64,000 nucleotides of DNA from positions 3,103 through 67,102 of the forward strand of contig PLYL01000008.1 in the NCBI GenBank assembly GCA_003151795.1, given 5' to 3'. Positions 12,155 through 64,000 of the stretch are shown piece by piece (position 1 is the first letter of the stretch; the number at the start of each line of letters is the position of its first letter). The notes under the pieces were generated by a model. It ran no database searches. It saw nothing but the letters and a program-made list of their open reading frames with translations, and had not been told where the DNA came from. This DNA is from Candidatus Yanofskybacteria bacterium (GTDB lineage: Bacteria; Patescibacteriota; Minisyncoccia; 2-02-FULL-40-12; GWA2-44-9). The position numbers and the translations under genes are program-made.

Positions 12155-13173
12155 AAAAGTTAAATCAAAAAATTCTGTTGGTCCACGACTACCCCGCACT
12201 ACATGGTGGAGGCGTTGTTCAGTTAAATTTAGATTTGGCAAAATCTCTAATCCAAAAAGGTTCACAGGTCACGATTGCCGTTCCAGAATATAACCCCGAT
12301 CTAAAGAAGTTGATAACAGAGAGCGACCAAATTTTGGTCAGCTTATCTAGTAAATTCAGAGAGATGGGTAAGAAATCGATTAGAATTGCTAGGGCTTGTG
12401 GTAAGCCTTACAAGGTTTGGTTACACACAAAATTGCCAGAAAATTATTGCGATTCTGAACAAGGAAAAGAAATGCAAAAAGTTTTATCTGATAAATTTTG
12501 CCTATCTTTTATTTGCGTTTCTCAAAGTGTCGCCGATGATATGGTCGCTAACTTTGGTTTTTCTTTGAAGGTAGCAGTTGTCTATCCGGGTGTATACATG
12601 GCTCAAAGATTTGAAGCTGACTCGCTGAACCTTGTGCTTAAAAGCGACGTTCTGTTCGCTGGAAGACTGTCTACTGAAAAAGGTGGCGATATATTTATCA
12701 GGGCTTTCAGTAAGCTTTTAAAGAATTCGCCAAATCTTAAAGGCGTGATTATTGGTGACGGGGAAGAAAAAAACTCGCTGGTTGAGTTGGCTTTTAATCT
12801 TGGAATTAAAAAGTCTATAACTTTTTTACCTGCGTGTAGCAGAGAAGAACTTTTCAAATACATCCGAAATACTCGTCTATTTTGTGTTTCATCTCGCACA
12901 GAATCTTTTTGTATAACATTAGCCGAAGCTCTTGCCTTAGGAGCTACAGTAGTCGCGCCAAACAGGGGTGGTCCGATTGAAGTATTGGATTCGGGAAGAT
13001 TTGGCTACTTGTTTAAACCAGAGGATCCTAATGATCTTGCTAGGATTCTTAAAGTGGCTCTATCTGAAAATCTATCAAGTAAGTTACTCCAAAAACTTTA
13101 TGTCATGAGACGATTTAATGCTAGTGTTCAGTTTATTCAGATGGCTAAGCTCGTAATATCGCCGAATTGGTAA
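12151..13173 (+). CDS. GT4 (group 1) glycosyltransferase
   Basis: C-terminal GT4 signature region (…FAGRLSTEKGGDIFIRAF…LAEALALGATVVAPNRGGPIEV…). Confidence 0.8.
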   Translation: MKKLNQKILLVHDYPALHGGGVVQLNLDLAKSLIQKGSQVTIAVPEYNPDLKKLITESDQILVSLSSKFREMGKKSIRIARACGKPYKVWLHTKLPENYCDSEQGKEMQKVLSDKFCLSFICVSQSVADDMVANFGFSLKVAVVYPGVYMAQRFEADSLNLVLKSDVLFAGRLSTEKGGDIFIRAFSKLLKNSPNLKGVIIGDGEEKNSLVELAFNLGIKKSITFLPACSREELFKYIRNTRLFCVSSRTESFCITLAEALALGATVVAPNRGGPIEVLDSGRFGYLFKPEDPNDLARILKVALSENLSSKLLQKLYVMRRFNASVQFIQMAKLVISPNW

Positions 13174-16531: not shown

Positions 16532-19500
16532 ATGGCTGATAAAGAGCTCAAAAAATCCGAATATACCGCCAAAGATATCCAAGTTCTTGAGGGGCTGGAA
16601 CCGGTCCGGAAACGGCCGGGGATGTATATCGGCTCGACGGGCGTCGACGGCTTGCATCACCTCATCTGGGAAGTGTTCGACAACTCGATTGACGAAGCCA
16701 TGGCCGGCCACGCCCATCATATCGAGGTTGGGCTTTTGGCCGACAACAAAGTTCGCGTCGCTGACGATGGCCGCGGCATCCCGACCGATATCCATCCTAA
16801 GACCAAAAAATCCGCCCTCGAAACCGCGGCCACGGTCTTGCATGCCGGCGGTAAATTCGAACAAGGCGCGTATAAAGTTTCCGGCGGTTTACACGGCGTC
16901 GGTTTGTCTGTTGTAAACGCGCTCTCGACCTGGATGAAAGCCGAAGTCTATCGCAAGCCGGATATCTTCGCTCAAGAATACAAAATCGGCAAACCGCAGG
17001 GGCCGGTCAAAAAAGTCGGGACCACCAAAAAGACAGGGACGACGATTACTTTCCAGCCCGACCCGACTATTTTCCCCGATACAACCTTCGACCTGCCGTA
17101 TATTCTTAATCACATTCGCCAGCAGGCCTACTTGACCAAGGGCGTTAAGATTACCGTGACTGATGCCCGTAATCCGATTATTGTCGCCGGCAAAGATGGC
17201 AACCTGCCTGCCGGCAGGCAGGGAAAACAGGAAGCGCCGTTCGATTACACGTTTTATTTCGAAGGCGGGATTATGTCGTACGTTGATTTTTTGAATCACG
17301 GCGAAGAGGTCAAAAACAAAAACATTTTTTATGTCGGTAAGGAACAGCAGGACATGTTCGTCGAAGTTTCTCTGCAGTATATCGAAGAGCTCACGAGCCG
17401 AGAATTATCTTTTGCCAACAACATCCATACGATTGAGGGCGGGACGCATCTGACTGGTTTTCGTACCGCGCTGACCAGAATTTTGAATGACTACGCGCGC
17501 AAGAACGGATTTTTGAAAGAAAAAGACGATAACTTGTCAGGCGAAGACGTCCGGGAAGGCTTGACGGTGGTGATTTCAATCAAACTTCGCGAACCTCAAT
17601 TCGAAGGCCAGACCAAAGCCAAGCTCGGTACAACCGAAGCCCGCAATGCCGTCGAGACCGTGATGACCGTTGAGTTCACGGACTGGCTGGAGCGTAATCC
17701 GAACGATGCTCGGGCGATTCTCGAAAAAGTTATCCTGGCCTCGAAAGCCCGTCTCGCGGCCAAAGCGGCTCGCGATACGGTGCTGCGCAAGGGCGCCCTG
17801 GAAGGCATGACCTTGCCGGGCAAGCTCGCCGATTGTTCCAGCCGGGATGCTTCGGAATCCGAATTGTTTATCGTCGAGGGCGACTCGGCCGGCGGATGTT
17901 TTTCGGGCGATACAAAAGTCGCTTTGCTTGATGGCAGGAACCTTTCGTTTAAGGAATTAGTAGAGGAGGACATGACTGGTAAGAAAAACTACTGCTACAC
18001 CATCAAAAATGACGGCAATGTCAGCGTGGCCCAAATTTTACATCCGCGAATTACTAAAAAGAACGCAGAAATAATAAGGGTTACTTTAGATAATAAAGAG
18101 GAAATTAGATGTACCCCAGATCATAAATTTATGTTGCGAGACGGGACTTATAAGGAAGCTCAATACCTAACAAAAAAGGATTCGTTGATGCCATTGTATA
18201 GAAGGTTGTCTAAAATCGCCGGTCGGATAACCATCAAAGGTTATGAGATGGTATATAATCCCGCCGAACATTATTGGCGGTTCACTCATGTTTTGGCGGA
18301 TCAATACAATCTTGCTCGAGATGTCTATACTCCTGAAGGTGGGGAAGCTCGGCATCACAAAGATTTTAATAAGCTGAACAACAACCCCGACAACTTGGTT
18401 CGTATGGGGAAACAAGAACATTTAATGTTTCATACGCAATGGCTTGAAAAGACAGCCCGAACACCGGAAGTATTAGAAAAACTGCGTAAGATTAGACAAA
18501 GTCCTGAATATCGCGCCAAAATAAGCCAGACCATGAAAATGCCAGCCATGCGGGCAATGCTTAGTGAACGCGCGAAGAAACAATGGGAAAATAAAGAATA
18601 TAAGGAATTTATGAATTCCAAGTTTTTAGAATTCTATAATTCCAATGAAGAATATCGAAAAACTAATAATAAACTTCTTAATAAAGCCCAAAAAACTTAT
18701 TGGGCCAGTAAAGACAATCGTCATGAACAGGCCAAGCGAGTTGCAGATTTCTTTGATAAAAATCCGGAATACCGAGCCTTGCTTTCTCAACAGGCGAAAC
18801 GGCAGTGGGACAATAAAGAGCTGGTGGCTTGGCGAAGTTTGGAGACTAAAAAACAGTGGACCCCCGAGTTCAGAGCCAAGAGAAAAGAGGCTTATAGCAA
18901 AACATACTTTACCCATACGATTAAATTTATGAAGGGTATTTTTGATCGGGATCATTTTCTTGATCAGTATGATGTCTTGAGAATTCAAAATAAAAGTCGA
19001 AATTTGTTACGAAGTGAAACATTCTGCCACAGGTTCTTTGACGACAATCCAACCGCCATGCTAGATGCGGTAAAAAACTATAACCATAAAATTAGGAAGG
19101 TAGAGAAATTAATTGAATGGACTGATGTCTATGATTTAGAAGTCTCTGGGACTCACAATTTTGCTTTGGCAAGTGGTGTCTTTGTTCACAATAGTTCCAA
19201 GCAAGCCCGTAATCGCCATACCCAAGCCATCTTGCCGTTGCGCGGGAAGATTTTGAATGTCGAAAAAGCCCGTCTCGACAAAATGCTCGCCTCGCAAGAA
19301 ATCCGCAATTTGATTATCGCTATGGGTACGGCCATCGCCGAGGAGTTTGATTTATCCAAATTGCGCTACCACAAGATTGTCATCATGACCGACGCCGACG
19401 TTGACGGCGCCCATATCCGGACATTGTTGCTCACGCTTTTCTATCGATATTTCCCGCAAGTTATCGCGGGCGGCCATTTGTATATCGCACAACCGCCGTT

Positions 19501-19933
19501 ATACAAAGTGCAAAAAGGAACCAAGATTCAATACGCATACAACGACGCGGAGAAAGATAAGGTGCTCGATATGTATCGAAAGGAAGCAGGCGAGAAAGCC
19601 GTCACCAAACCGAAAAAAATAAAAACAGACGCCGGCTTTGAAGTAACGGATCTTGATGGCAATGGCGCGGAACCCTCTTTCGCTGAAGCTTCGGCGGGCG
19701 AGGAAAAAATCGCTGGTGTTTCTCTCCAGCGTTACAAAGGTCTTGGTGAAATGAATCCGGACCAGTTGTGGGAAACCACCCTCAATCCCGAGAACCGAGT
19801 CTTACTTCGTGTTGATGTGAAAGATGCCCAAGCGGCCGACAAGGTCTTTGATATTCTGATGGGCTCCGATGTCATGCCCCGCAAGAAATTTATCCAGACC
19901 CACGCCAAGTCAGTAGTTAATCTAGATATCTAG
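16532..19933 (+). CDS. gyrB: DNA gyrase subunit B, interrupted in-frame by an intein
   Basis: N-term GHKL ATPase motifs; EGDSAGG|C…HN|[26 protein letters not shown]; C-term [10 protein letters not shown]. Confidence 0.95.
   Translation: [1133 protein letters not shown]
17897..19192 (+). mobile_element. GyrB intein (~432 aa) with HNH homing-endonuclease-like core and repeated basic motifs
   Basis: starts Cys (tgt 17897), ends His-Asn (19187-19192), +1 Ser; internal '[29 protein letters not shown]' HNH motif; repeats PEYRAK.SQ..K..W.NKE. Confidence 0.85.
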
Positions 19934-23695: not shown

Positions 23696-25198
23696 ATGAA
23701 ATACCAGCCGGTTGTCGGACTCGAAATTCACGCGGCGGTCAAAACCAAGACCAAGATGTTTTGTGATTCGCTGAATGATCCGGATGAGAAACGGCCGAAT
23801 TGGAATGTCTGCCCGATTTGCATGGGCCATCCGGGAACGATTCCAGTTATCAACGAAGAGGCGGTCAAGAAAGTTATTATGACGGGCTTGGCTTTGAATT
23901 GTTCCATTGCGCGCGATACTTTTTTCGAGCGCAAGAACTATTTTTATCCCGATTTGCCGAAGGGCTATCAGATTTCTCAATATCAAAAACCGTTGTGTTT
24001 CGGAGGCTACTTGGAAATTAAATCCGAAGCACGAAATCCTAAATCCGAAATAAATTCGAATATAAAAAATTCAAAAAGAATAAACATTACCCGAATTCAT
24101 CTAGAGGAAGACGCGGGCCGGCTCCAGCATGACCCATCGGGAGATTTCTCTTTGGTGGACTATAATCGGGCGAGTGTCCCGCTCATGGAACTCGTGACCG
24201 AGCCAGATTTTACTAACGGAGATGATGTGCGAGCGTTCGCGGAAGAGTATCAGCTGATTTTGAAATATATCGGCGCGTCGGATGCCGATATGGAAAAAGG
24301 TCTGATGCGGGTCGAGGTCAATATTTCTCTGACTAACGCTGACGGTTCCTACGGCACCAAAGTGGAAATTAAGAATCTCAATTCTATCGCCGCCGCCGCC
24401 GCATCGGTGGATTATGAAATGGCCCGGCAGAAAGAATTGATTGAAAGCGGGGGAGAAGTGGCGGCCGAGACACGCGGGTGGGACGAAAATAAAAAGGCGA
24501 CTTTCAGCCAGCGTTCCAAAGAGGAAGCCCATGACTATCGCTATTTTCCCGAACCGGATTTGCCGCCGTTGAAAATACAGGAATTACGAAGTAGGAATAA
24601 TGAATTAGGAGAAGAAAACCGAGGAGGATTTTATATTGATGAAATCCGAGCCATGTTACCTGAACTGCCACAGGCTAGACGTGAACGATTCAAGAAGCAA
24701 TATGGTTTACCAGATGCAGATGTTGAAATATTCACGACCGATAAGGAACTGGGAAATTACTTTGAGCATGTGGTATCGGAACTCGGCGATAACAGCCTCG
24801 CTAAATTGGCCGCCAACTATCTCATCACCGAAATCAGAAAACACGGCGGAGTGGTCGGAATCAAAATTACGCCCGCCGATTTCGCGGATTTTATTAAGCG
24901 CATCGCGAAGAAGGAAATCTCTTCCTCCGGCGCGCAAACGGTATTGGAAGAAATGTTCAAAACCGGCGCTTCGCCCGAACAAATCATTAAAGAAAAAGAT
25001 TTGGGCCAAGTTTCAGATGCCGGCGCCCTGGATGCGGTAGTAGATAAGGTCCTTGCCGATAATGCCAAAGCGGTAGAAGATTACAAGAAAGGCAAGGAAG
25101 CACCGTTGAAATTCCTAATCGGCATGGCCATGCGCGAAAGCAAGGGGAAGGGGAATCCCCAAGTTTTAGAAGAGATGATTAAACAAAAGCTCTTGTAA
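23696..25198 (+). CDS. gatB: Asp/Glu-tRNA(Asn/Gln) amidotransferase subunit B
   Basis: MKYQPVVGLEIHAAVKTKTKMFC… RIHLEEDAGRL; ATG 23696 (track 23522 is an upstream extension). Confidence 0.9.
   Translation: MKYQPVVGLEIHAAVKTKTKMFCDSLNDPDEKRPNWNVCPICMGHPGTIPVINEEAVKKVIMTGLALNCSIARDTFFERKNYFYPDLPKGYQISQYQKPLCFGGYLEIKSEARNPKSEINSNIKNSKRINITRIHLEEDAGRLQHDPSGDFSLVDYNRASVPLMELVTEPDFTNGDDVRAFAEEYQLILKYIGASDADMEKGLMRVEVNISLTNADGSYGTKVEIKNLNSIAAAAASVDYEMARQKELIESGGEVAAETRGWDENKKATFSQRSKEEAHDYRYFPEPDLPPLKIQELRSRNNELGEENRGGFYIDEIRAMLPELPQARRERFKKQYGLPDADVEIFTTDKELGNYFEHVVSELGDNSLAKLAANYLITEIRKHGGVVGIKITPADFADFIKRIAKKEISSSGAQTVLEEMFKTGASPEQIIKEKDLGQVSDAGALDAVVDKVLADNAKAVEDYKKGKEAPLKFLIGMAMRESKGKGNPQVLEEMIKQKLL
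24026..24085 (+). repeat. in-frame dispersed-repeat copy inside gatB (encodes SEARNPKSEINSNIKNSK)
   Basis: cgaaatcctaaatccgaaat resembles reverse complement of intergenic element at 34483..34546. Confidence 0.4.
24581..24614 (+). repeat. in-frame dispersed-repeat copy inside gatB (encodes ELRSRNNELGEE)
   Basis: gaattacgaagtaggaataatgaattaggagaag matches miaA copy and 55132..55174 arm. Confidence 0.5.
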
Positions 25199-26168
25199 GT
25201 TTCTCGGCGTTTTTCTCGGTTTTTAGCCAGCGGATTTCTTTGTTGCGTTTGAACCAGGTCATCTGGCGTTTGGAGTATTGAATTTCAGAAAGCGTAACTA
25301 ATTTTTTTGTTTCAGTTAAAGAGGTATTTCCCTTCAGGTATTCAAGGATGATTCGATAGCCTAATCCTAAATTATGAAGTCGTTGCCAAGAAATTCCGTT
25401 TGCGCGGAGTTTTTTAACTTCGGCAATCAGACCTTGTTTGAATCGGGCCGAGAGACGAGCGGAGATTCTTTGGTCAAGATTTTTAGGATTTAAACCGAGC
25501 CAAAGGACATCGTAAGGCGATTGTTTTTTAATTTGACCAACAGGCTGGCCGGTCGCGATAACAATCTCAATTGCGCGAATCAGGCGGCGGGGATTATGGC
25601 GGTCGATGTTTTGGGCTCTTTCTGGGTCGAGCTTTTGCAATCGAGCGAATAATTGTTCCGGAGTTTGTTTCTCGAGTTTCGTGCGGAGTTTATAGTTGGG
25701 CGGTACTTCCGGCAGAGAGAAGTTGTAGATAAGCGTATCAATGTATTGTCCCGTTCCGCCGACGATAATTGGTAGTTTGTTTCTTTTTAAAATATTTTTG
25801 ATAGCGCGCTGAGCGAGCTTTTGAAATTGGGCCACGCTAAAAATCCGTTTTGGATTAGCGACATCGATGAGATGATGTCTGATTCCGTTTGAGTAGTACT
25901 CATTCCTAATTCCTAATTCATAATTCCTACTTCTGTCTTTTGAGACTTTACCCGTGCCGATGTCCATTCTACGATATACTTGGCGCGAATCAGCGGAGAT
26001 AATCTCGCCATTGAATTTTCGGGCTAACTGAATCGCCAGGTCAGATTTTCCTGACGCAGTCGGGCCCACGATTACGATTATTTTAGGCTTGCCCAGTATA
26101 TCAACATCGACCCGCCTGCGGTTTTTGGAGACTGTCGAAGTTGTATTACTGGGTTTGATTTTGACCAT
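25179..26168 (-). CDS. miaA: tRNA dimethylallyltransferase
   Basis: P-loop GPTASGKS, …ISADSRQVYRRMDIGTGK. Confidence 0.9.
   Translation of the reverse strand: MVKIKPSNTTSTVSKNRRRVDVDILGKPKIIVIVGPTASGKSDLAIQLARKFNGEIISADSRQVYRRMDIGTGKVSKDRSRNYELGIRNEYYSNGIRHHLIDVANPKRIFSVAQFQKLAQRAIKNILKRNKLPIIVGGTGQYIDTLIYNFSLPEVPPNYKLRTKLEKQTPEQLFARLQKLDPERAQNIDRHNPRRLIRAIEIVIATGQPVGQIKKQSPYDVLWLGLNPKNLDQRISARLSARFKQGLIAEVKKLRANGISWQRLHNLGLGYRIILEYLKGNTSLTETKKLVTLSEIQYSKRQMTWFKRNKEIRWLKTEKNAEKLTRAFV
25902..25934. repeat. in-frame dispersed-repeat copy inside miaA (encodes RSRNYELGIRNEYY on - strand)
   Basis: attcctaattcctaattcataattcctacttctg. Confidence 0.5.
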
Positions 26169-27218: not shown

Positions 27219-27252
27219 GCGCGGGCCCGAGGGCCCGCGCAATTTATTTTTT
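27219..27252. terminator. bidirectional rho-independent terminator between 26831..27199 and thrS
   Basis: gcgcgggccc/gggcccgcgc palindrome + aatttatttttt. Confidence 0.75.
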
Positions 27253-28965
27253 GAGGCTGATTTCTTCTTTCAGTTGAGCGACGGCAGTGTCTATGAGCAT
27301 GGTGCCCATGTCGCCTTGACCGTGTTTGCGGACGGCGACGGTTTGCGCGTCGACTTCTTTGTCTCCGATCACGAACAGATAGGGGATTTTTTGGGTCTCG
27401 GCGTTGCGGATTTTTTTGCCGAGGGTTTCGTTTTCGTTATGAAGCTCAACCCGGACGCCGGCATGTTTTAATTTGTGCACGACGGCTTCGGCCCAGGCTT
27501 GTTGCTTTTCGGTTATAGTAATGACGGCGACTTGGACTGGCGAAAGCCAGAGCGGAAACGCACCGGCGTAGTGTTCAATAATAATTCCAAGGAATCTCTC
27601 AAGCGAGCCATACACTACGCGATGGACAACTACTGGCGTTTTTTTATTTCCGTCTCGGTCGGTGTAATAGAGTTCAAAGCGTTTCGGTAACTGGAAGTCA
27701 AGCTGAATAGTGCCCATCTGCCATTCACGGCCAAGACAGTCCTTCATTAAGATATCTATTTTTGGCCCATAAAAGGCGGCGTCGCCTTCTGCCACGATGT
27801 ATTCTTTGCCGGATTTTTTAAGAATCTCCCTAAGTTTTTCTTCAGCTTTATCCCAAGTCGCTTTCTCTCCTAAAAATTTTTCCGGCCTCGTTCCCAGGCG
27901 GAAAGAGTATTCAAGATTGAATATGCCATAAAACTTTTTACAGATTTCAAAAATATGTTCGTATTCATCTCCGATCATTTCTTCGGAGATAAAGTTATGA
28001 GAATCGTCTTGTTGGAATGAGCGGACTCGTAAGAGGCCATTAAGCGTCCCGCTTCGTTCATAGCGATGCAAACGATCGGTATCGGACAGCCGGATCGGAA
28101 GATCTTTGTAGCTCACTTGCATGGATTTGAAGACCACCATCGCATTCGGACAATTCATCGGTTTGATGCCGTAAATTTCGTTTTCTCCCATATCCGCGAT
28201 AAACATATCGTCTTTATAATGTTCCCAATGGCCGGAAATTTTCCAAAGTTCCGCCTTATTCACAAGCGGACTCGCTATTTCTTGATATCCGAGGGCACTA
28301 TGTTCAACTCGCCAGTAATTAACGAGTTCGTTGTAAATGATAAGTCCTTTCGGTAACCAGTAGGGCATGCCGGGTGAAGTTTCATGAAACATAAAAAGGC
28401 CGAGCTGGGGTCCGAGTTTCTTGTGGTCGCGCTTCCTTGCTTCTTCGAGGAGTATTAAATGTTTCTGCAGTTCGTCTTTGGTCGCGAAGGCTAGGCCGTA
28501 AATGCGGGTGAGCTGGGGATTCTTTTCATCACCGCGCCAGTAGGCGCCGGCGAGACGCGAGAGTTTGAAGGCTTTGGGATTGAGGTCTTTGATATTCTCG
28601 ACATGACCGCCTCGGCAGAGGTCGGTGAAATTTCCCGAAGTATAGAGAGTTATTGTTTCACCTTTTTTAACCAGTTCATCAATTAATTCTTCTTTGTAAG
28701 GGTTACTGGCGAATTGTTGCTTGGCTTCATCGGCGGAAACTTCTCGGCCTTCAAAACCTTGCCATGTTTTTAAAATCTCGCGCATCTTGTCTTCAATTTT
28801 CGGGAGGTCGGTGTCCGAAACTTTTTCCGGAATATCGATGTCGTAATAGAAACCATCGTCGATGGCCGGCCCGATGGCTAATTTAGAACCGGGATATAAA
28901 TCCAAAACCGCCGCCCCGAGCAAGTGGGCGAGAGAATGGCGGATATGTTCAATAGGGGAAGCCAT
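27244..28965 (-). CDS. thrS: threonyl-tRNA synthetase (no N-terminal TGS domain)
   Basis: HSLAHLL editing-domain motif, class II core, anticodon-binding domain. Confidence 0.9.
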   Translation of the reverse strand: MASPIEHIRHSLAHLLGAAVLDLYPGSKLAIGPAIDDGFYYDIDIPEKVSDTDLPKIEDKMREILKTWQGFEGREVSADEAKQQFASNPYKEELIDELVKKGETITLYTSGNFTDLCRGGHVENIKDLNPKAFKLSRLAGAYWRGDEKNPQLTRIYGLAFATKDELQKHLILLEEARKRDHKKLGPQLGLFMFHETSPGMPYWLPKGLIIYNELVNYWRVEHSALGYQEIASPLVNKAELWKISGHWEHYKDDMFIADMGENEIYGIKPMNCPNAMVVFKSMQVSYKDLPIRLSDTDRLHRYERSGTLNGLLRVRSFQQDDSHNFISEEMIGDEYEHIFEICKKFYGIFNLEYSFRLGTRPEKFLGEKATWDKAEEKLREILKKSGKEYIVAEGDAAFYGPKIDILMKDCLGREWQMGTIQLDFQLPKRFELYYTDRDGNKKTPVVVHRVVYGSLERFLGIIIEHYAGAFPLWLSPVQVAVITITEKQQAWAEAVVHKLKHAGVRVELHNENETLGKKIRNAETQKIPYLFVIGDKEVDAQTVAVRKHGQGDMGTMLIDTAVAQLKEEISLKK

Positions 28966-28967
28966 TA

Positions 28968-29030
28968 GTAATTAGCGATTAGGACTTAGTCAATAAAGAA
29001 TAACAAATAAATTCAGTAAGTTAAAGAGCT
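28968..29030. repeat. intergenic copy of AGGACTTAG/AAGAAT-type dispersed repeat
   Basis: attaggacttag… shares core with 34483..34546. Confidence 0.35.
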
Positions 29031-29492: not shown

Positions 29493-32400
29493 ATTGATTT
29501 CACATCATCACAGAGGAGCTTGAGGGCGCCGTCGCGGTCATTGATTTTGCCGGTGGTGACGACGATAGCATTTTCTTTAAACATTTCGGGATATTTTTCA
29601 TAGACATTCGGGAAGACGACGACTTCGATTTTTGAAGTGAGATCTTCAACCCAGGCGAACATCATCGGCCGGCCGGTTTTGGTAATTATTTTTTGAACTT
29701 TGGTCACAATTCCGCCGATTTTGATTTGGCTCGTGCTGTTTGGTTTCACGTCTTTGATGGCGACAGTCTTTTCTAATTTCATGGTTGGTGCGTATTCGTG
29801 GAGGGGATGGGCGGAAACAAAGAGGCCGAGCAGTTCTTTTTCCCACATTAATTTTTCGGAGTTGCGGGCGGGCGTGGTGGCATTGAGCCGAAAGGCCGGC
29901 AGAGCAATAGGGTCGTTGCCAAACAAACTGGCTTGGCCCATGCTAGTGCTTTTTTGTTTGTCGTGGGCGAAGGAAAGAAGGTTTTCCAGATTAAGCAATA
30001 ACATGTTCCGTTCGCCGAAAGAATCCAGCGCTCCGCATTTGATGAGGGCCTCGAGCGATTTTTTGTTGAGGTCTTTATTGTGCACTCGCGATACAAAATT
30101 TTCGATGTCGGTATAGGGGCCATTGGCTGTTCGTTCGGCGATAATCGCCTCGGCGATATTTTCGCCGAGATTTTTAATGGTCAAAAGCCCAAATCGGATT
30201 TGATCCCTTTGTTCCTTGTTCATTGTTCCCTGTTCACTGGCTTTAATGACCGTAAAATCTTTAAAAGAGGTGTTAATTTCCGGCGGTAAAACCGGAATTT
30301 TCATGCGCTGGCATTCTTCAATCACTTGAGCGACTCTCTCCGTGTCGCCCGATTCGGCCGTGAGAATGGCGCACATATATTCCGCGGAATAGTTAGCCTT
30401 CATGTACGCGGTCTGGTAGGCGACTCGGCCGTAGCAGGCGGCGTGGGCTTTATTGAAGCCATAGCCCTGGAACGGTTCGAATAAATTCCAGATTCCTTCG
30501 GCTTGTTCGGTCGTCATACCGCTATGGGTTTTACAACCTTCAACGAAAATAACATGCTGTTTGGCCATCTCGGCCGGAATTTTTTTGCCCACCGCTTTTC
30601 TAAATTTGTCGACGGATTCCCAATTGTAGCCGGCCAATTCCATGGCCGTGAACAGCAGGTCATCCTGATAGACCAAGACGCCGTAGGATTTTTCCAGCCA
30701 TTGTTTAGCTTTAGGGTGAAAATAAATAGTCGGACTCCGGCCTTGTTTGCGGGCGATGTACTCCGAGATGTTATTAATCGGACCGGGCCGATACAGCGCG
30801 ACCATGAGATTAATATCATGAATAGTGGTGGGTTTGAGTTCCATGAGATACTTAGTCATACCCGAGGAACCGCCCAGCTGGAAAACTCCTTCGGTATAGC
30901 CGTTGGCGAGCATGGTGAAGGTTTTTTTGTCGTCGAAAGGAATTTTTTCAATATCAATAGTGATGCCTTGGTGTTCTTTAACCAAGCGGACGGCGTTTTC
31001 TAAGATGGCCAAGTTGCGGATGCCCAAGACGTCGAGCTTAAGGAGGCCGACGCCGTCTTCGCCGACCGTGTACATGTCGTATTGCGTGATAAGGTTGTTG
31101 CCTTCTTTAGGATCGAACTGAATCGGCACGTATTCGATGAGCGGTCTGGGCGAAATAACGAGACCGGCGGCGTGGACCGAGACATGGCGGACCGTGCCTT
31201 CAAGCTTTTTGGCGATGTCCATAATCTGCCGAGTTTCCAAATCCCGTTCGTAGAGATTTTTTAATTCCGGTTCAAGTTCCAGCGCTCGTTCGATGGTCAT
31301 GGGGAATCCTTGAGAACCCATGGGGATGAGTTTGGCGAGCCGGTCGCCGACTTCGTAGGACTTGCCGGTGGCGCGAGCGACGTCCCGTACCGAACCGCGG
31401 GCGAGCATGGTGCCGAAGGTGCCGATTTGAGCGACTTTATCGGCGCCGTATTTCTTTTTGGCGTACTCCACGATTTCTTGACGGCGGTTATCGGCAAAAT
31501 CCATATCAATATCCGGCGCCGACGGGCGAAAAGGATTCAAAAATCTTTCAAACGGCAGCTGGAATTCAATAGGATTGACGCTAGTGATGCCGGAAAGATA
31601 GGCGACCAGGGAACCGGCGGCGGAACCGCGGACCGTGGTATAGATATTTGATTCGTGGGCAAAGCGAAGCAGGTCGGCGACGACCAAAAAATAGGGCGCG
31701 TAATTTTTGTTTTTGATAATCTCCAGTTCGTATTGGCGGCGGGTTTCGATTTCGGGGTTATTTTCTAATTCGCGTTCGACGGCCCCTTTTTTGGTCAGCT
31801 CGTCCAACATCTGATCGGATGTTTTGCCTGGTTCGAGTTCAAAATTAGGGAAGATGAATTTACCGAGGGTCAGTTCGATGTTGCAGCGGTCGGCGATTTT
31901 TTGCGTGTTCGCGACGGCTTCGGGAGTTTCCTTGAATCGTTCGACCGCTTCTTCGGTGGAAAGAAAATGATACTCGCCTTGGCCGGAAAATATCGCCGGA
32001 TCGCTGACGTCGGTGTGTGTGGAGATGGCGACCAAAGTTTTATGGGCGACCGCATCGTCTTTGCGGAGGTAGTGGGAGTCTTGCGTCGCGACGAGGGGAA
32101 TATTGTGTTTGCGGGCTAGCTCGAGAATCGCACTTTTCCATTCCGGGAACCATTCCATATCAGGATGGTGCATGATTTCCATATAATAGTTTTCGGGACC
32201 GAAGATGGCCTGGTATTCCAGAACAATTGCTTCCGCTTTTTCTTTGTCGCCGTGCTGAATGGCTCGGCCTAACTCACTGCCGGGACAGCCCGAAAGACAA
32301 ATCAAGCCTTCAGCGTGCTGGCGGAGCAAGTCTTTATCGACACGCGGTTTGTAATAGAAGCCCTCGAGGTGGGCCGAGGTGGTGAGCCTGATTAAGTTTT

Positions 32401-34257: not shown

Positions 34258-34482
34258 GTGGCAGTACCGAGACACCATATGGCCAAAGGGAAGCAGCTGC
34301 GCCGACGCAGTCATTTGGCGTTGAAGAGCGGCACCTTAACGAAATGCGCTCATTGCGCTAAAATGATTATGCCGCATCAGGTTTGCAAATTCTGCGGTTT
34401 CTACAAAGGCCGAGAAGTTGTAAATGTTCTCGGTAAGGAATTAAAGAAGCAGGAAAAGCGCACCGCACAGCGTACAAGATAG
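34258..34482 (+). CDS. rpmF: 50S ribosomal protein L32
   Basis: MAVP…RRRSH…C..C…C..C zinc-ribbon pattern. Confidence 0.75.
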   Translation: MAVPRHHMAKGKQLRRRSHLALKSGTLTKCAHCAKMIMPHQVCKFCGFYKGREVVNVLGKELKKQEKRTAQRTR

Positions 34483-34546
34483 AATTTAGGACTCAGGATT
34501 TAGGACTTAGATTTGACTAAGTTCTAACTTCTAAGTTCTAACTCCT
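34483..34546. repeat. intergenic inverted-repeat element (TAGGACT/TAGAACT units)
   Basis: left taggactcaggatttaggacttag vs right ctaagttctaacttctaagttctaa. Confidence 0.55.
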
Positions 34547-34552
34547 TTATAA

Positions 34553-35074: not shown

Positions 35075-35084
35075 TAATTTAATA

Positions 35085-35151
35085 GAATTAAGAGTTAAGA
35101 ATTACGAATTAAGATTTTCAATCTTACTTCTTAATTCTTACTTCGTACTTC
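35085..35151. repeat. intergenic inverted-repeat element (AAGAATTA units)
   Basis: gaattaagagttaagaattacgaattaaga … tcttacttcttaattcttacttcgtacttc. Confidence 0.6.
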
Positions 35152-35160
35152 TTTGTGAAT

Positions 35161-39947: not shown

Positions 39948-40466
39948 ATGGGGAAAGCTCTGGAAAGAGGTGTTATTGCCACTAAAATCGACCAGCGTCT
40001 TTATAAGAACGCCGTTTTGTATTTTATTAAGTACTGTAATAATCGTTATCTCCACCAAACTAAACTTAACAAGCTTTTGTATTATTTAGATTTTATTTCC
40101 TATCGTGATAATAAAAAATCAGTTACGGAGGATGTTTATATTCATAAGCAATATGGTCCAGTGCCTGCACACGCAGATGAGATATTGACTCAACTCAAAC
40201 AGCAAGGTGCTATTGGAACAAGTATGTCTTCCCACAAAGACGGAGAGATGATAAGTTTTGAATTGAAAGATGAATCGCAATTAGATGAATCGGTTTTTTC
40301 TCCAGAACAAAAGAAGCTCCTCAAAGAAATTTGTGATGAGTTTGGGGGTTGGCCAACTGAAAAGATTGTTGCCCAAACTCATTTAGAAGCTCCTTGGTTT
40401 TATTCAAAGCCTTATGAAATCGTCGATTATGCCTACGCACAAGACATCGGTTTCTTCAGGAAATAA
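39948..40466 (+). CDS. Panacea (DUF4065)-domain putative antitoxin
   Basis: TKLNKLLYYLDF…HKQYGPVPAH… pattern typical of DUF4065 phage-associated proteins; AT-rich. Confidence 0.55.
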   Translation: MGKALERGVIATKIDQRLYKNAVLYFIKYCNNRYLHQTKLNKLLYYLDFISYRDNKKSVTEDVYIHKQYGPVPAHADEILTQLKQQGAIGTSMSSHKDGEMISFELKDESQLDESVFSPEQKKLLKEICDEFGGWPTEKIVAQTHLEAPWFYSKPYEIVDYAYAQDIGFFRK

Positions 40467-40474
40467 TCAGAGCC

Positions 40475-40858
40475 ATGTCGTGGGTATATATCGAGAGAGA
40501 GCAATTTGTCCGTATGTGTGACAAACTGGATATATCAGCCACCGTCAGAGAATCTATAAAATCATGGGCACCCACTGTATCTAGATATGAGATACCACGC
40601 CAAAAACTAGTTTATCGGTCTCCTAAAAATAAATATGAAGCTTGGGCTGCTGGGCTTCCTAACCCAGATAGTAATAAAGGTAAAAGTGGTGGCTACAGGG
40701 TTGTTTATTATCTAGATCTTATTGAAAAAACGATAAACTTGGATTTTATTGAGGATAGAAAGAATCTAGGTTTTAAAGATGAAGGTCATCGTAAAAAAGA
40801 CGGCTATAATGATTATATTCGTGGTCTCAAAGAATTTTTAAAAGAGAATGATTGTTAA
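40475..40858 (+). CDS. HigB/RelE-like (Gp49-type) putative toxin
   Basis: KGKSGGYRVVYYLD… motif characteristic of HigB-2/RelE-family toxins. Confidence 0.55.
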   Translation: MSWVYIEREQFVRMCDKLDISATVRESIKSWAPTVSRYEIPRQKLVYRSPKNKYEAWAAGLPNPDSNKGKSGGYRVVYYLDLIEKTINLDFIEDRKNLGFKDEGHRKKDGYNDYIRGLKEFLKENDC

Positions 40859-44399: not shown

Positions 44400-46745
44400 C
44401 TAGGATTCTTTAGATGAAGTGTCAATGACAGCGATTTCCCCACTAGTAGAATCTTCAATGGCCTTCGGCTTTTTGGGAGTTGAAAATTCACTACCCGGCT
44501 TAGGCTTTCCATATTTTTTAGCAGGTTTAACTGGTTTTGATTTCCATATTACCAATGCTTCCTGCAGTTCGGCTTCGCTTTCGGGTTTCTTGCCCATCAG
44601 GAAGGTACAATCGGGCCAGCGGGAACAGGCATAAAAGAGTTTACCACGGCCGCGGGATTTTTTCTCCACAACATCGCCAGTCAGACAGTTCGGGCATTTG
44701 AATCCGGTCTTGTTGAAGATTTTGGAAATACCCTTACATTTAGGATAATCGACACAACCGAGGAAATAGCCGAAGCGCCCGCGGATTACTTTCATGGGTT
44801 TGCCGCAGATAGGGCACATTTCGCCTTTGGTTTTTTCTTCCAGTTCTTTTATTTTGGCGGCTTCTTCGGGCATAGGAAGCGAAACTTTGCTCCCAGGTTC
44901 GGGACAGGCGAGGAATTTACCGTTGCGTCCGAATTTAACGAGCATCATTTTACCGCAGTGCGGGCAAGGCGTAGTCGATTCGACGATTAGTTTTTCGACG
45001 AGTTCCGTTTTTTCTTTTAAGTTCTTGGCGAAAGGCGCGTAGAATTCTTCCACCACCGGCACCCATTTAATTTTGCCTTCGGCAATATCATCAAACTCTT
45101 CTTCAATGTGCGAGGTGAAATTTATGTCGATGACTTCTGGGAAGTTCTCAACGAGCATGTCGTTGACCGAAAAGCCAATTTCGGTGGGTTTATATTTCTT
45201 GTCTTCTTTTTCGACGTAGCCGCGGTCCTGAATCGTGGTGAGGGTCGGCGCATAGGTCGAAGGACGGCCGACGCCCGCGGCTTCAAGGGTTTTAATGAGC
45301 GAGGCGTCGGTGTATCTGGGCGGCGGTTCGGTGAAGTGCTGGTCTTTGGCGAGCTTAATCAGATTTAATAATTCTTTTTGGGACAATTCCGGAAGTTGGC
45401 CGTCTTCGTATGAGTCTTCTTCAGTCTTTTCGTCGTCTTCTTTGGTTTCGGTATAGGCGCGGATGAAGCCGTCAAATTTAACCGCTTGGCCGTTGGCGCG
45501 GAAGGTGTATTTTCTTGATTCTTGATTCTTGCTTCGTGCTTCTATATCCGCGGCGGTTTGGTCGAGAATGGCAACCTGCATCTGGCAGGCGATGGTCCGT
45601 TTCCAGATCAAGTCATAGAGGCGGAGCTGGCCGGAATCCAAATCTTTGTCGAGACTGTCGGGCAAGCGGGATAAATCGGTGGGCCGGACGGCTTCGTGAG
45701 CTTCCTGGGCGCCTTTGGATTTGTTGAGGAATGAGCGGGGCGCGTCGAGGCAATATTCCTTGCCAAATTGTTTCTTGATGACTTCTTGGGCTTGAGCCAG
45801 GGCAATTTCCGAGATATGCAAACTGTCGGTGCGCATGTAGGTAATCATGCCGGTTTCGTATAATCTCTGGGCCAAGGTCATGGTCTGTTTGGCGGAGAAG
45901 CCGAGTTTCTTGGCTGCTTCTTGCTGGAGAGTGGAAGTCGTAAATGGCGCGGGCGGGGTCCGTTTGACTTCTTTTTTCACGACGTCGATGACTTTATATT
46001 CGGCGCCGACTAATTCGTCGGTAATTTTTTTAGCGTCGGCTGGATTTTTAATGCCCAATCGGTCGATTGATTCTTCGCCCCCGCCTGGCCGGCCGGCAGG
46101 GATTTTGACGAGCCGAGCTTTGAAAGTCTTGTCCTCGTCTTTTTTAGAAAGGTCGGCTTCGACGGACCAGTATTCTTGGGGCGTGAATTTTAGGATTTCG
46201 CGTTCGCGCTCCACGACGAGGCGGACGGCGACGCTTTGGACGCGGCCCGCGGAAAGGCCGGAGCGGATTTTTTTCCACAGGAAGGGCGAGAGTTTGTAAC
46301 CGACGAGGCGGTCGATGATGCGCCGGGCCTGTTGGGCGTCGACGAGATTCTGGTCGAGCTGGCGGGGATGAGCGATGGCTTTTTCAATCGCGGGTTTGGT
46401 AATTTCATGGAAGACGACGCGTTCGGTCTTGCCGGCCGTGGTTTTCTTATCCAGGCCGAGGGCGTGGGCGAGATGCCAGGCGATGGCTTCGCCTTCGCGG
46501 TCCGGGTCGGTGGCGAGAATCACCATGTCGGCTTTGGCCGCCGCGGTTTTGAGTTCGCTGACAATCTTCTTGGCTTTTGTCGGAATAATATATTCAGGTT
46601 TGAAATCGTGGGCGATATCGATGCCGATGCCTTTCTTGGGTAAGTCGCGGATATGGCCGAAAGAGGATTTAACGACAAAATCGCCGCCGAGGAAGCGGGA
46701 GATGGTTTTAGCTTTGGTTGGGGATTCGACGATTATTAACTGCAT
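44400..46745 (-). CDS. topA: DNA topoisomerase I
   Basis: Toprim N-terminus, catalytic core, three C-terminal zinc ribbons, Lys-rich tail. Confidence 0.95.
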   Translation of the reverse strand: MQLIIVESPTKAKTISRFLGGDFVVKSSFGHIRDLPKKGIGIDIAHDFKPEYIIPTKAKKIVSELKTAAAKADMVILATDPDREGEAIAWHLAHALGLDKKTTAGKTERVVFHEITKPAIEKAIAHPRQLDQNLVDAQQARRIIDRLVGYKLSPFLWKKIRSGLSAGRVQSVAVRLVVEREREILKFTPQEYWSVEADLSKKDEDKTFKARLVKIPAGRPGGGEESIDRLGIKNPADAKKITDELVGAEYKVIDVVKKEVKRTPPAPFTTSTLQQEAAKKLGFSAKQTMTLAQRLYETGMITYMRTDSLHISEIALAQAQEVIKKQFGKEYCLDAPRSFLNKSKGAQEAHEAVRPTDLSRLPDSLDKDLDSGQLRLYDLIWKRTIACQMQVAILDQTAADIEARSKNQESRKYTFRANGQAVKFDGFIRAYTETKEDDEKTEEDSYEDGQLPELSQKELLNLIKLAKDQHFTEPPPRYTDASLIKTLEAAGVGRPSTYAPTLTTIQDRGYVEKEDKKYKPTEIGFSVNDMLVENFPEVIDINFTSHIEEEFDDIAEGKIKWVPVVEEFYAPFAKNLKEKTELVEKLIVESTTPCPHCGKMMLVKFGRNGKFLACPEPGSKVSLPMPEEAAKIKELEEKTKGEMCPICGKPMKVIRGRFGYFLGCVDYPKCKGISKIFNKTGFKCPNCLTGDVVEKKSRGRGKLFYACSRWPDCTFLMGKKPESEAELQEALVIWKSKPVKPAKKYGKPKPGSEFSTPKKPKAIEDSTSGEIAVIDTSSKES
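45514..45542. repeat. in-frame dispersed-repeat copy inside topA (encodes EARSKNQESRK on - strand)
   Basis: cttgattcttgattcttgcttcgtgcttc. Confidence 0.45.
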
Positions 46746-55059: not shown

Positions 55060-55063
55060 CCTA

Positions 55064-55174
55064 GAAGCAAGAATATAGAGTTAAGAATTAAGCGGGATTG
55101 AATGCTGAGCTATAAATTGGTAGCTTTGTTTCGTGCTTGATCTTAATTCTTGATTCGTAATTCCTACTTCTTCC
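55064..55174. repeat. intergenic inverted-repeat element of AAGAATTA family (arms 55064-55096 and 55132-55174)
   Basis: gaagcaagaatatagagttaagaattaagcggg … cgtgcttgatcttaattcttgattcgtaattcctacttcttcc. Confidence 0.6.
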
Positions 55175-62856: not shown

Positions 62857-64000
62857 ATGAATATTAGAAATTTTTGTATCATCGCCCACATTGATCATGG
62901 AAAATCGACCCTCGCGGATCGATTTTTAGAATTGACGGGTACGGTCGAGAAGCGAAAGATGCACGAACAGTATTTGGATACCATGGATTTGGAGCGCGAG
63001 CGAGGTATTACTATTAAACTCCAGCCGGTGCGGATGAATTATCAATACAAAGACGAAGCCTACATGCTTAATCTGATTGACACTCCCGGGCATGTTGATT
63101 TTACTTATGAAGTTTCGCGGTCGTTGGCGGCCGTGGAAGGGGCGATACTTTTAGTGGACGCATCCAAAGGCGTCCAAGCCCAGACGCTCGCGAATTTACA
63201 CCTCGCCCAACAGCAGAAACTAGTAATTGTACCCGTGATAAATAAAATAGATTTGCCGAATGCCCGCACCCTGCAAGTCAAAGAAGAACTGGCATACTTA
63301 CTCGGTATTGAGCCGGAAGAGATTCTAGAAATATCCGCCAAAAGCGGGTTAGGCGTCGAAGAACTTCTTCAGCGCGTGATTGAAAAGGTACCTTCACCCT
63401 CCCAAATTTTGTCTGACAAAAATTGGGAGGGCAAGCCAACCACAACTTCAGCCGAAGTCGAATTGAAGGCGCTCATTTTTGATTCTTCTTTTGATACCTA
63501 TAAAGGCGTGATCGCGTATGTCCGCGTCTTCAGCGGTTCCTTAAAACAGAGCATGCCGATTAGCGCGTACGCGTCGCGGGCGAAGGCCGAAGTGCTTGAA
63601 GTCGGCTATTTTTCTCCCGGTTTGGTCGAATCAAAACTTTTGGGTCCGGGTGAAATCGGCTATATCGCGACAGGCCTAAAAGATCCAGGCCAGATTCGGG
63701 TCGGCGATACGATTACAGATCAGAATTACGAAGCAAGAAGTAAGAATCACGAATTTAAACCTCTGGCGGGCTACAAAGAACCTCGGCCGATGGTGTTCGC
63801 CAGTTTCTTCCCCGTCGAAGGCGAAGCCTATGATCTGCTCAAAGACGCGCTGTCGAAGCTCAAGCTGACCGACGCCTCGCTGATTTATGAGCCGGAATCT
63901 TCCGCCGGACTGGGCCGGGGCTTTCGAGTTGGATTTTTGGGGATGCTGCACGTGGAAATTATATCCGAGCGGTTGCATCGGGAATTTAATTTGAATTTAA
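62857..64000 (+). CDS. lepA: elongation factor 4 (LepA), 3'-truncated by window edge
   Basis: IIAHIDHGKSTLADR G1, DTPGH G3, NKID G4; not in ORF track because no stop in window. Confidence 0.9.
   Translation, partial: MNIRNFCIIAHIDHGKSTLADRFLELTGTVEKRKMHEQYLDTMDLERERGITIKLQPVRMNYQYKDEAYMLNLIDTPGHVDFTYEVSRSLAAVEGAILLVDASKGVQAQTLANLHLAQQQKLVIVPVINKIDLPNARTLQVKEELAYLLGIEPEEILEISAKSGLGVEELLQRVIEKVPSPSQILSDKNWEGKPTTTSAEVELKALIFDSSFDTYKGVIAYVRVFSGSLKQSMPISAYASRAKAEVLEVGYFSPGLVESKLLGPGEIGYIATGLKDPGQIRVGDTITDQNYEARSKNHEFKPLAGYKEPRPMVFASFFPVEGEAYDLLKDALSKLKLTDASLIYEPESSAGLGRGFRVGFLGMLHVEIISERLHREFNLNL
63724..63756 (+). repeat. in-frame dispersed-repeat copy inside lepA (encodes NYEARSKNHEF)
   Basis: gaattacgaagcaagaagtaagaatcacgaattt. 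Confidence 0.45.

Follow-up and report, generated by a model that had tools for sequence, protein, structure and literature searches.

Tandem heptanucleotide arrays as lineage-specific in-frame insertions and intergenic inverted repeats in Parcubacteria

The repeats scattered through a 64,000-nt stretch of Candidatus Yanofskybacteria DNA (the window) form a dispersed family of lineage-specific, in-frame insertions, which also builds intergenic inverted repeats. The repeat is a tandem heptanucleotide of about 4-6 units and about 35 nt, with the consensus A-N-G-A-A-K-Y in this genome. We consider it rather likely that the arrays are simple-sequence repeats with a heptanucleotide unit, which slippage or template switching multiplies in place and which selection then filters into disordered surface loops. 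The arrays of the window and their principal host genes are listed in Table 1.

Table 1. Heptad arrays and host genes in the window
Feature	Position	Strand	Units	Further data
gatB CDS, host gene	23696-25198	+		Pfam GatB_N + GatB_Yqey; E = 8.5e-125 to T. maritima GatB 3al0_B
gatB insert 1, degenerate heptad array	24026-24070	+	CCGAAGC ACGAAAT CCTAAAT CCGAAAT ...	45 nt; peptide EARNPKSEINSNIKN
gatB insert 2, heptad array with tail	24579-24634	+	AGGAATT ACGAAGT AGGAATA ATGAATT AGGAGAA + tail	net +45 nt; peptide QELRSRNNELGEENRGG
miaA CDS, host gene	25179-26168	-		Pfam IPPT; E = 1e-54 to 2qgn_A
miaA heptad array	25901-25935	-	CAGAAGT AGGAATT ATGAATT AGGAATT AGGAATG (sense strand)	peptide RSRNYELGIRNE; TRF period 7, 4.6 copies, 88% matches
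thrS	27244-28965	-		
Heptad array running into the thrS start codon	28960-28989	-	CTAAGTC CTAATCG CTAATTA CTAATGG	TRF period 14
dnaE heptad array	30207-30239	-	GTGAACA GGGAACA ATGAACA AGGAACA	4-9 aa extra; host ORF Pfam DNA_pol3_alpha
Intergenic hairpin, two inverted heptad arrays	34480-34547	.	TAGGAYT x5 / CTAAGTT x4	TRF; fold -24.2 kcal/mol, z -3.78
Intergenic hairpin between nusB and rnc, inverted heptad arrays	35084-35152	.	AAGAATT type	inverted repeat, 33-nt arms, 82% complementary; z -3.12
topA heptad array	45510-45544	-	TAGAAGC ACGAAGC AAGAATC AAGAATC AAGAAAA	peptide EARSKNQESRK; 7-aa gap vs 6ozw_A
Intergenic hairpin, heptad-array arms and 49-nt center	55063-55171	.		inverted repeat; fold -37.4 kcal/mol, z -4.82
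Heptad array in DUF4012 gene, N-terminal region of the protein	57573-57614	+		peptide QKQEARIKNQEEK; Pfam DUF4012
lepA heptad array	63721-63755	+	CAGAATT ACGAAGC AAGAAGT AAGAATC ACGAATT	peptide QNYEARSKNHEF; 6-aa gap vs Aquifex LepA 2ywe_A

Period and abundance of the arrays

The head-to-tail arrangement of 7-nt units was detected by TRF at period 7 or 14, and autocorrelation and alignment of the units concurred. Seven period-7 arrays were found in the window, compared with none in 50 shuffles and none at the other periods from 5 to 12. A 23-mer pattern had four matches in the window where none was expected, and a 13-mer had 13 (2.3 expected). Across about 1.37 Mb of Parcubacteria loci, 85 period-7 arrays were counted, while no other period between 4 and 15 gave more than 6. 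Perfect runs of more than 3.5 units were confined to period 7; perfect arrays peaked at 4.5 units and never reached 5. Array length is likewise narrow, lying between 28 and 47 nt.

A census of 132 arrays in Parcubacteria loci placed 69 within ORFs of at least 200 aa. On the sense strand, A exceeded T in 60 of 65 coding arrays. The units are drawn from a pool common within each genome, with 2.21 mismatches between units within a locus and 2.56 between loci (permutation p < 0.0005), and they show a polarity from 5'-GAAG to 3'-GAAT. A single locus, L017, carries several internally perfect arrays built from different units (AAATCCC, AAATTCC, AAAATTC and AAATTGT). Arrays of the AAGAAKY type were found in more than 120 metagenome contigs ranging from 32 to 71% GC. 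A literature search returned no description of heptamer repeats in Parcubacteria, CPR or Patescibacteria.

In-frame insertions in gatB and miaA

The original prediction placed two copies in gatB and one in miaA, all in frame. This was borne out: the inserts measure 45, 45 and about 39 nt and are missing from the closest relatives and from the solved structures. Delimited against the nearest relatives (~80-90% amino acid identity), the second gatB insert is exactly 45 nt, at about 24590-24634, and the miaA insert is 39 nt, at 25884-25922. For the first gatB copy, an interval of 24026-24085 had been proposed; the insert itself accounts for 24026-24070, and the final ~15 nt are native sequence. 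TRF reports period 7 at 24020-24051. Compared with solved homologs, GatB shows a gap of 9-12 aa between 'LEI' and 'KRINITRIH' and another of 15 aa following 'PEPDLPPL', and MiaA a 13-aa gap relative to PDB MiaA at 'RSRNYELGIRNEY'.

Alignment with orthologs showed the inserts of both proteins to be lineage-specific, being missing in close relatives, and the identical peptides are carried by none of the distant orthologs. In a codon alignment, the first gatB insert was missing from relatives L001, L002, L004, L005, L007 and L082. The miaA insert was missing in L081, L002 and L004; L082 and L001 hold another array at this position, and MiaA of L012 contains a complete inverted pair of arrays, in frame. 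Identical loops of GatB and MiaA have been struck repeatedly across lineages, each time with lineage-specific heptamers.

The expectation that the copies add hydrophilic loops at permissive positions also held. In the AF2 model of GatB, the first insert is the tip of a beta-hairpin with pLDDT <50 (residues 113-123), and the second is a coil linking the cradle domain to the helical domain. The arrays at site 1 of GatB are in phase with their native flanks and similar to them (GAAAT... / GAAAAA). At site 2, the short alleles already contain GAAG spaced 14 nt apart.

The words that the coding copies were said to have in common with intergenic inverted repeats were recovered as 10-11-mers. GAAGTAGGAAT is found in gatB site 2, in miaA and in a hairpin arm at 55160(-), and GGAATTACGAA in gatB site 2 and at 55154(-); the hairpin at 55063-55171 accordingly has 11-mers in common with both genes. 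TCCTAAATCC is common to gatB site 1 and the hairpin arm at 34496(-). The identity of 22 of 23 positions between gatB site 2 and miaA was discounted as evidence of a specific copying event, as random reassembly from the window's unit pool gives at least 22/23 in 22% of simulations.

Arrays at one site switch sequence while the flanks stay unchanged. At gatB site 2, the window, L081 and L083 have identical flanks and three different 5-unit arrays, and the peptides of three relatives at this site all differ (QELRSRNNELGEENR, LGTMNNEQGTRTE and LESRIKNQELSGEH); the turnover observed is that between species. The length of the insert is held at 13-15 aa despite the changing sequence. The inserts represent a derived state. 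In the GatB tree, GatB of the window clusters with L001-L004 and P0002, where both inserts are missing, and the long allele of site 2 is patchily distributed. An ancestral insert with simple vertical inheritance was therefore rejected; the patchy distribution would require recombination or repeated gain and loss.

Arrays in further core genes

Coding arrays add floppy loops of 6-15 residues and sit in the middle of the catalytic domains of essential enzymes, namely GatB, MiaA, TopA, DnaE, LepA and ValRS. In the syntenic conserved genes, seven insertions of at least 4 aa are specific to the window, and four of these are heptad arrays; within this group, much of the length variation among the proteins compared is due to such arrays. 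The topA array is shared with the relative L134 at the identical site, where 33 of 35 nt match, compared with ~82% in the surroundings. The dnaE array is an insertion with respect to L001, L002 and L004. The coding copies in topA, lepA, dnaE and the DUF4012 gene, as well as the tandem-heptamer nature of the repeat, had escaped the original prediction.

Intergenic arrays and start codons

The intergenic hairpins lie directly in front of genes. The hairpin at 34480-34547 ends 6 nt upstream of the nusB start, that at 35084-35152 about 10 nt upstream of the rnc ATG, and that at 55063-55171 ends 6 nt upstream of a glycosyltransferase ATG. In orthologous loci the nusB-rnc spacer holds other heptad hairpins, except in L001, which is without any. 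A long hairpin upstream of rnc is present in the window, L134, L003 and L004, though its sequence has been replaced.

Compared with shuffles, the intergenic hairpins fold with z-scores of -3.1 to -4.8, whereas in-gene copies gave -0.76 (gatB 1), -0.16 (gatB 2), +0.79 (miaA), -0.23 (topA) and +1.40 (lepA). In-gene copies as hairpins were hence rejected for these five arrays, which fold no better than shuffles. The intergenic hairpins are unlikely to act as intrinsic terminators, judging from their AT-rich stems and from the sequence that follows, which has no T-run. A search of the whole window against Rfam at gathering thresholds returned nothing but a tRNA, and no known RNA family could be assigned to the arrays.

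Of 64 non-coding arrays, 33 end between -6 and +25 nt from a start codon, a position occupied by 15% of random non-coding positions. That about half of the non-coding arrays adjoin start codons suggests a function for at least some copies, and the intergenic hairpins and leader arrays next to start codons may have a role at the RNA level.

Origin of the arrays

Chance similarity arising from codon bias or low complexity would fit the A-rich coding strands, in which Lys, Glu and Asn codons are similar to the unit; an assembly artefact would be a further source. Both are effectively refuted. Ordinary codon bias, named in the original prediction as a possible explanation of the copies, fails because shuffles give zero arrays and period 7 alone is enriched. 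Moreover, orthologs lack the inserts, and arrays of this kind recur across numerous independent assemblies, the topA site of L134 among them. Another possibility is that the arrays are miniature mobile elements, similar to MITEs, REPs or Rickettsia palindromic elements. A transposase acting in trans would then move the intergenic hairpin as the complete element, and copies within genes would be halves or decayed forms of it that were inserted in frame. The true hairpins formed by intergenic copies are consistent with such elements, as are the complete in-frame inverted pairs in MiaA of L012 and in a YjeF-like gene of L114, the near-constant length of the module, the polarity of its units, the unit pool common within each genome and the patchy presence among relatives. 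However, the in-gene copies of the window do not fold, and comparison with empty sites revealed no recognizable TIRs or target-site duplications, the nearest of these sites being ~78-80% identical at the DNA level, which makes the insert boundaries uncertain. Internally perfect arrays with differing units in one genome are unlike the copying of a master element, and the unit pool alone would yield the 22/23 match of gatB with miaA by chance (P = 0.22). In addition, the 50 ORFs of the window (~64 kb of the genome) yielded no transposase, RAYT or reverse transcriptase. We regard a mobile origin as improbable.

Alternatively, selection might preserve the arrays for a function of their own. They could serve at the RNA level, as signals for RNase III or for translation initiation and, in the case of in-gene copies, as modulators of mRNA or translation, or else as advantageous disordered protein loops. 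The concentration of non-coding arrays near start codons argues for this, and a parallel exists in the TAACTGA repeats, which lie ahead of start codons (PMC4679880). The hairpin upstream of rnc persists despite sequence replacement, conservation of the topA array is higher than background, and gatB site 2 keeps its length while its sequence changes. On the other side, the peptides are not conserved, and the closest relatives manage without the inserts (P0002 has neither gatB insert, L081 no miaA insert). The in-gene arrays are unstructured and predicted to be disordered, and the hairpin of the nusB-rnc spacer is absent in L001. Maintenance by selection for a function is conceivable, though unlikely.

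The origin that we favor is local amplification followed by selective filtering. Replication slippage or template switching would amplify a 7-nt unit in place, with the seed provided by microhomology to native codons rich in GAA/AAG or to another array. Arrays would be continually homogenized and mutated, and hence their sequence would turn over faster than that of the flanks. Amplification in place is suggested because single genomes hold perfect arrays of differing units, as in L017, because the arrays at GatB site 1 phase with and resemble the native flanks, and because short alleles of gatB site 2 already have the spaced GAAG motifs. Selection would retain only those array lengths that restore the reading frame and would keep the A-rich strand as sense, which gives no stop codons and a peptide rich in Lys, Glu, Asn, Arg and Ser. 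Arrays would further be retained only where a surface loop or a linker between domains tolerates them. Such a filter is supported by the excess of A over T in coding arrays and by the location of inserts in low-pLDDT loops. In proteins, we infer, the arrays are near-neutral disordered spacers rather than functional modules.

The narrow range of array lengths is not obviously predicted by stepwise slippage, and the common unit pool together with the GAAG-to-GAAT polarity hints that a template is shared or that arrays are copied. The occurrence of AAGAAKY arrays over so wide a GC range, the high conservation of the topA array and the proximity of non-coding arrays to start codons likewise speak against the favored origin. 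One might imagine a dedicated process that writes arrays of ~32-35 nt (~4.5-5 units) at sites of microhomology across Parcubacteria, with AAGAAKY arrays in bacteria of 32-71% GC, and that serves as a main generator of new loops in essential enzymes and of hairpins or leaders at start codons. Candidates would be a stutter of polymerase or primase, or a repair reaction templated by RNA or DNA. Such a process would account for the fixed array size, the ceiling of ~4.5 perfect units and the unit pool within a genome; it is nevertheless a speculative and quite improbable proposal.

Implications for protein evolution and phylogeny

For protein evolution in reduced genomes, the arrays represent a case in which a non-triplet, 7-nt repeat builds and replaces disordered loops repeatedly at identical structural positions. 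They inflate apparent divergence and disturb alignments, and phylogenies based on CPR marker genes can be misled. At the same time, they flag the insertion-tolerant loops of GatB, MiaA, TopA and LepA. Parcubacteria constitute a dense natural data set on why heptamers, among unit sizes, expand in bacteria, offering frame-constrained coding copies as well as non-coding copies beside start codons.

Relation to known repeat families

Among long simple-sequence repeats, those with a heptanucleotide unit are described as the commonest in many bacteria, and a proposed explanation is slippage of the polymerase (Mrazek 2007, cited in both PMC4692102 and PMC4679880). These repeats are the closest known class to the arrays described here and include the cyanobacterial STRR, the GGGAATC and GGGGAYT repeats of Xanthomonas and Nostoc, and TAACTGA of Beggiatoaceae (PMC4692102, PMC4679880). 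Common to both are a 7-nt unit in 2-6 tandem copies, many dispersed loci per genome with a lineage-specific unit, convergent inverted pairs among some copies, and many arrays directly upstream of start codons without a Shine-Dalgarno sequence. For both, slippage is a proposed mechanism. In contrast to the described families, which are mostly intergenic or at protein termini, about half of the arrays of the window's family lie in ORFs, and they re-strike identical protein loops in different lineages. Their units are A/T-rich, whereas the described ones are G-rich, and their host is a CPR/Parcubacteria lineage.

The likeness to Rickettsia palindromic elements that had been proposed holds in part. 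Like these elements, the arrays are dispersed through intergenic regions as well as, in frame, through unrelated housekeeping genes, here at permissive positions of gatB, miaA, topA, lepA and dnaE, and they add a surface-exposed peptide without destroying function. Rickettsia palindromic elements are palindromes of ~100-150 bp that belong to defined families, and the peptide they encode is conserved (PMC10969869). The in-gene arrays of the window, however, are non-palindromic tandem heptads of 33-45 nt without a conserved peptide. Since size, palindromy and peptide all differ, the likeness is one of outcome, not of membership.

A further parallel is provided by the tandem repeats of Borgs, which are reported to be fast-evolving, independently arising repeats that add disordered protein segments (PMC9879509). 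Compared with what is described there, the arrays of the window are short (~5 units) and reside in core genes of a bacterial chromosome. Their 7-nt unit, in a further difference from the Borg repeats, keeps the reading frame at some array lengths only.

Heptad arrays in gatB, miaA and elsewhere in the window

The best matches of GatB in species genomes (75% identity) are labelled Candidatus Yanofskybacteria (Parcubacteria, CPR). In the window, gatB and miaA are convergent, with a 20-nt overlap. The original prediction held that both genes carry in-frame insertions related to intergenic repeats and resembling Rickettsia palindromic elements. The segments are indeed extra: alignment to solved structures left gaps at two segments of GatB (sites 1 and 2), 9-12 aa following 'YLEI' and 15 aa following 'PEPDLPPL', and at 13 residues of MiaA (RSRNYELGIRNEY). 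Codon alignments showed that both gatB inserts are exactly 45 nt. The sharing is equally real, 10-11-mers being common to the inserts and the arms of the intergenic hairpins. Read as DNA, all three segments are tandem heptamers: AGGAATT ACGAAGT AGGAATA ATGAATT AGGAGAA at gatB site 2, CAGAAGT AGGAATT ATGAATT AGGAATT AGGAATG on the sense strand of miaA and, more degenerate, CCGAAGC ACGAAAT CCTAAAT CCGAAAT at gatB site 1.

A scan of the window for the unit A-N-G-A-A-K-Y returned 12 runs, compared with 0-4 in shuffled sequences. Independently of the unit, 7 period-7 arrays were found against 0 in 50 shuffles, and no arrays at any other period from 5 to 12 were present in the window. Aligned, the arrays define a module of about 35 nt, or 5 units. 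The intergenic elements, each an inverted pair of arrays, fold as long hairpins (z relative to shuffles -3.1, -3.8 and -4.8); the in-gene arrays of the window show no such folding (z -0.8 to +1.4). The window yielded neither a transposase nor a reverse transcriptase nor any known RNA family.

Coordinates of genes, arrays and related features (window positions unless a locus is named)
Feature	Position	Strand	Remark
gatB	23696-25198	+	
miaA	25179-26168	-	
topA heptad array	45510-45544	-	unit scan
lepA heptad array	63721-63755	+	unit scan
DUF4012 gene heptad array	57573-57614	+	unit scan
dnaE heptad array	30207-30239	-	period-7 scans, not unit scan
Intergenic inverted pair	34480-34547		
Intergenic inverted pair	35084-35152		nusB|rnc spacer
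Intergenic inverted pair	55063-55171		
Array ending just before a start	34516-34546		
Array ending just before a start	35121-35153		
Array ending just before a start	55142-55171		
Array ending just before a start	28960-28989		
nusB|rnc spacer, L134	2296-2493		
nusB|rnc spacer, L004	~12419-12495		
nusB|rnc spacer, L001	19446-19565		
lepA palindrome	63397-63431	+	in frame
gyrB	16532-19933	+	1133 aa

A different element lies within lepA, a perfect 17-nt palindrome (CCCTCCCAAATTTTGTC and GACAAAAATTGGGAGGG) inside a 14-aa segment absent from Aquifex LepA. It is non-heptadic, has a strong fold (z -4.4) and comes nearer than the reported gatB and miaA copies to being a true palindromic element in frame.

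The inserts are derived and turn over in place

GatB was taken from 79 related loci. The window protein clusters with those of loci L001-L004 and, among database proteins, with P0002 (89-90% identity). The site-2 insert is absent from all of these; the site-1 insert is absent from L001, L002, L004 and P0002, while L003 has a short unrelated insert. MiaA has the short canonical form in L081, L002 and L004, and in L082 and L001 a different array of AAAATTT units stands at the same place (peptide TLPKSKFKILNLKFPKN). Surplus residues (4-9) were also found at the arrays of dnaE, topA and lepA, and heptad arrays make up 4 of the 7 window-specific insertions of at least 4 aa scorable against syntenic relatives.

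Inserts occupy GatB site 1 in 26 and site 2 in 12 of 80 sequences, and their DNA is heptadic with lineage-specific units, such as (AAATCCC)4 in L015, L017 and L048, (GAAATCC)4 in L039, (ATTACCA)4 in L025 and (AATCTAG)4 in L013. The window, L081 and L083 have the same site-2 flanks (TTGAAAATAC ... GGATTTTATATTGA) enclosing three different 5-unit arrays that encode three unrelated peptides; arrays thus turn over in place. By contrast, the topA array is 33/35 identical in L134, although identity in the DNA around it is about 82%. Site-1 arrays keep the phase of the native flanks and are similar to them (GAAAT... / GAAAAA), and short site-2 alleles already hold GAAG motifs 14 nt apart; both observations fit local amplification seeded by microhomology. 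The AF2 model of GatB (pLDDT 83) has insert 1 at a beta-hairpin tip, between strands 101-109 and 126-138, with pLDDT <50 at residues 113-123; insert 2 is modelled as coil linking strand 292-295 to helix 314-319, where the cradle domain meets the helical domain.

Site 2 (24570-24650) occurs as two allele types, short 'HFExxD-IExIK' and long 'KI...GFYIDEI', when the window, L081 and L083 are compared with L082 and L001-L004. The long allele has near-identical DNA flanks and is patchy on the GatB tree, a pattern suggestive of exchange by recombination between lineages or of gain and loss on repeated occasions; L081 and L083 share one sample of origin. At the MiaA site (orthologous to window ~25880-25950 in L001, L082, L019, L008, L009, L007, L012 and L026), long alleles have common flanks 'KV-x-RD-x-T ... 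YYSxG' and a 5' flank forming a 9-bp hairpin, AAAGTnnnn-CGAGA-nnnnACTTT, with covarying arms (TTTTG/CAAAA, TCGCG/CGCGA, TCCGA/TCGGA). In L007 the insert is a perfect 16-bp palindrome; in L012 it is a complete in-frame pair of inverted heptad arrays. These patterns point to either selection for a hairpin or templated fold-back copying.

Heptad arrays across the group

Such arrays are a general feature of the group. In 1.36 Mb of sequence, made up of the window and 80 GatB loci, 85 arrays of at least 4 units at ≥85% had period 7, compared with at most 6 at each other period from 4 to 15. A slightly looser threshold gave 132 arrays, 69 of them within ORFs of at least 200 aa. A exceeded T on the sense strand in 60 of 65 coding arrays, a bias that looks like a selection filter, since stop codons and hydrophobic residues result from the pure T-rich orientation. 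Arrays measure 28-47 nt (mode ~35), and their units vary by lineage (AAATCCC, AAATTGT, AATGTAG, AATCTAG, ATTACCA and others), with higher similarity within a locus than between loci. Perfect period-7 runs in 81 GatB loci and the window numbered 38 at 2.5 units, 12 at 3, 8 at 3.5, 4 at 4, 13 at 4.5 and 0 at 5 or more. This distribution is non-geometric, with a second peak at 4.5 units and an apparent ceiling on perfect run length.

The pattern GAAGYANGAAGYAAGAATYAAGA matched at least 120 metagenome contigs of 32-71% GC. Among the matches listed were CPR genes, namely those for TopA (same site), ValRS (three heptad inserts) and RecX and a YjeF-like one that has the two arms in frame; other listed matches form AT-rich islands within DNA of high GC, and several are located just upstream of ATG. 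AAGAAGY/AAGAATY arrays form such islands in the metagenome contigs L084-L170, at up to 71% GC, and a conserved leader-like copy directly precedes ATG in L118, L152, L162, L166 and L170.

Arrays beside start codons

More than half of the non-coding arrays in L001-L083 (33/64, 52%) end between -6 and +25 nt from a start codon (ORFs of at least 100 aa), compared with 15% of random non-coding positions. No obvious Shine-Dalgarno sequence separates array end and start codon. Window examples adjoin nusB, rnc, a glycosyltransferase gene (55178) and thrS. The arrangement parallels the TAACTGA repeats of Beggiatoaceae. The nusB|rnc spacer of the window, that of L134/L003 and that of L004 have distinct heptad hairpins; that of L001 has none. 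In four relatives, the RNase III gene is immediately preceded by a long hairpin of differing heptads, which, speculatively, could be a site of autoregulation or processing by RNase III.

Nature of the repeats

The repeats fit the class of heptanucleotide simple-sequence repeats. Among long repeats this class is known to be the most over-represented one in many bacteria, and polymerase slippage has been proposed to explain it (Mrazek 2007, as cited in PMC4692102 and PMC4679880). What is new is the host group, together with the large coding share, the reuse of the same loops and the location in catalytic cores of essential enzymes. The predicted likeness to Rickettsia palindromic elements holds for the outcome, but not for size, palindromy or a conserved peptide. 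Simple slippage does not explain the narrow size, the cap at ~4.5 perfect units, the polarity of the arrays from 5'-GAAG to 3'-GAAT or the common unit pool, so that a process driven by a template or an enzyme may be involved. The similarity between gatB and miaA was rejected as proof of a copy event, because it is expected by chance from the common unit pool (P = 0.22).

Other features of the window

An intein splicing domain (residues 465-887) is inserted before the Toprim domain of GyrB. The ORF at 577-3006, encoding a PKD-domain protein of 809 aa, contains a C-rich 39-nt tandem repeat (1613-1754, +; 3.6 copies, 95% matches), the unit being a multiple of three. The kilobase with the highest AT content in the window (GC 0.37) contains, at 39948-40858 (+), a gene for a SocA/Panacea-domain antitoxin and, after it, a 127-aa ORF that has no annotation; the two may be a toxin-antitoxin pair.
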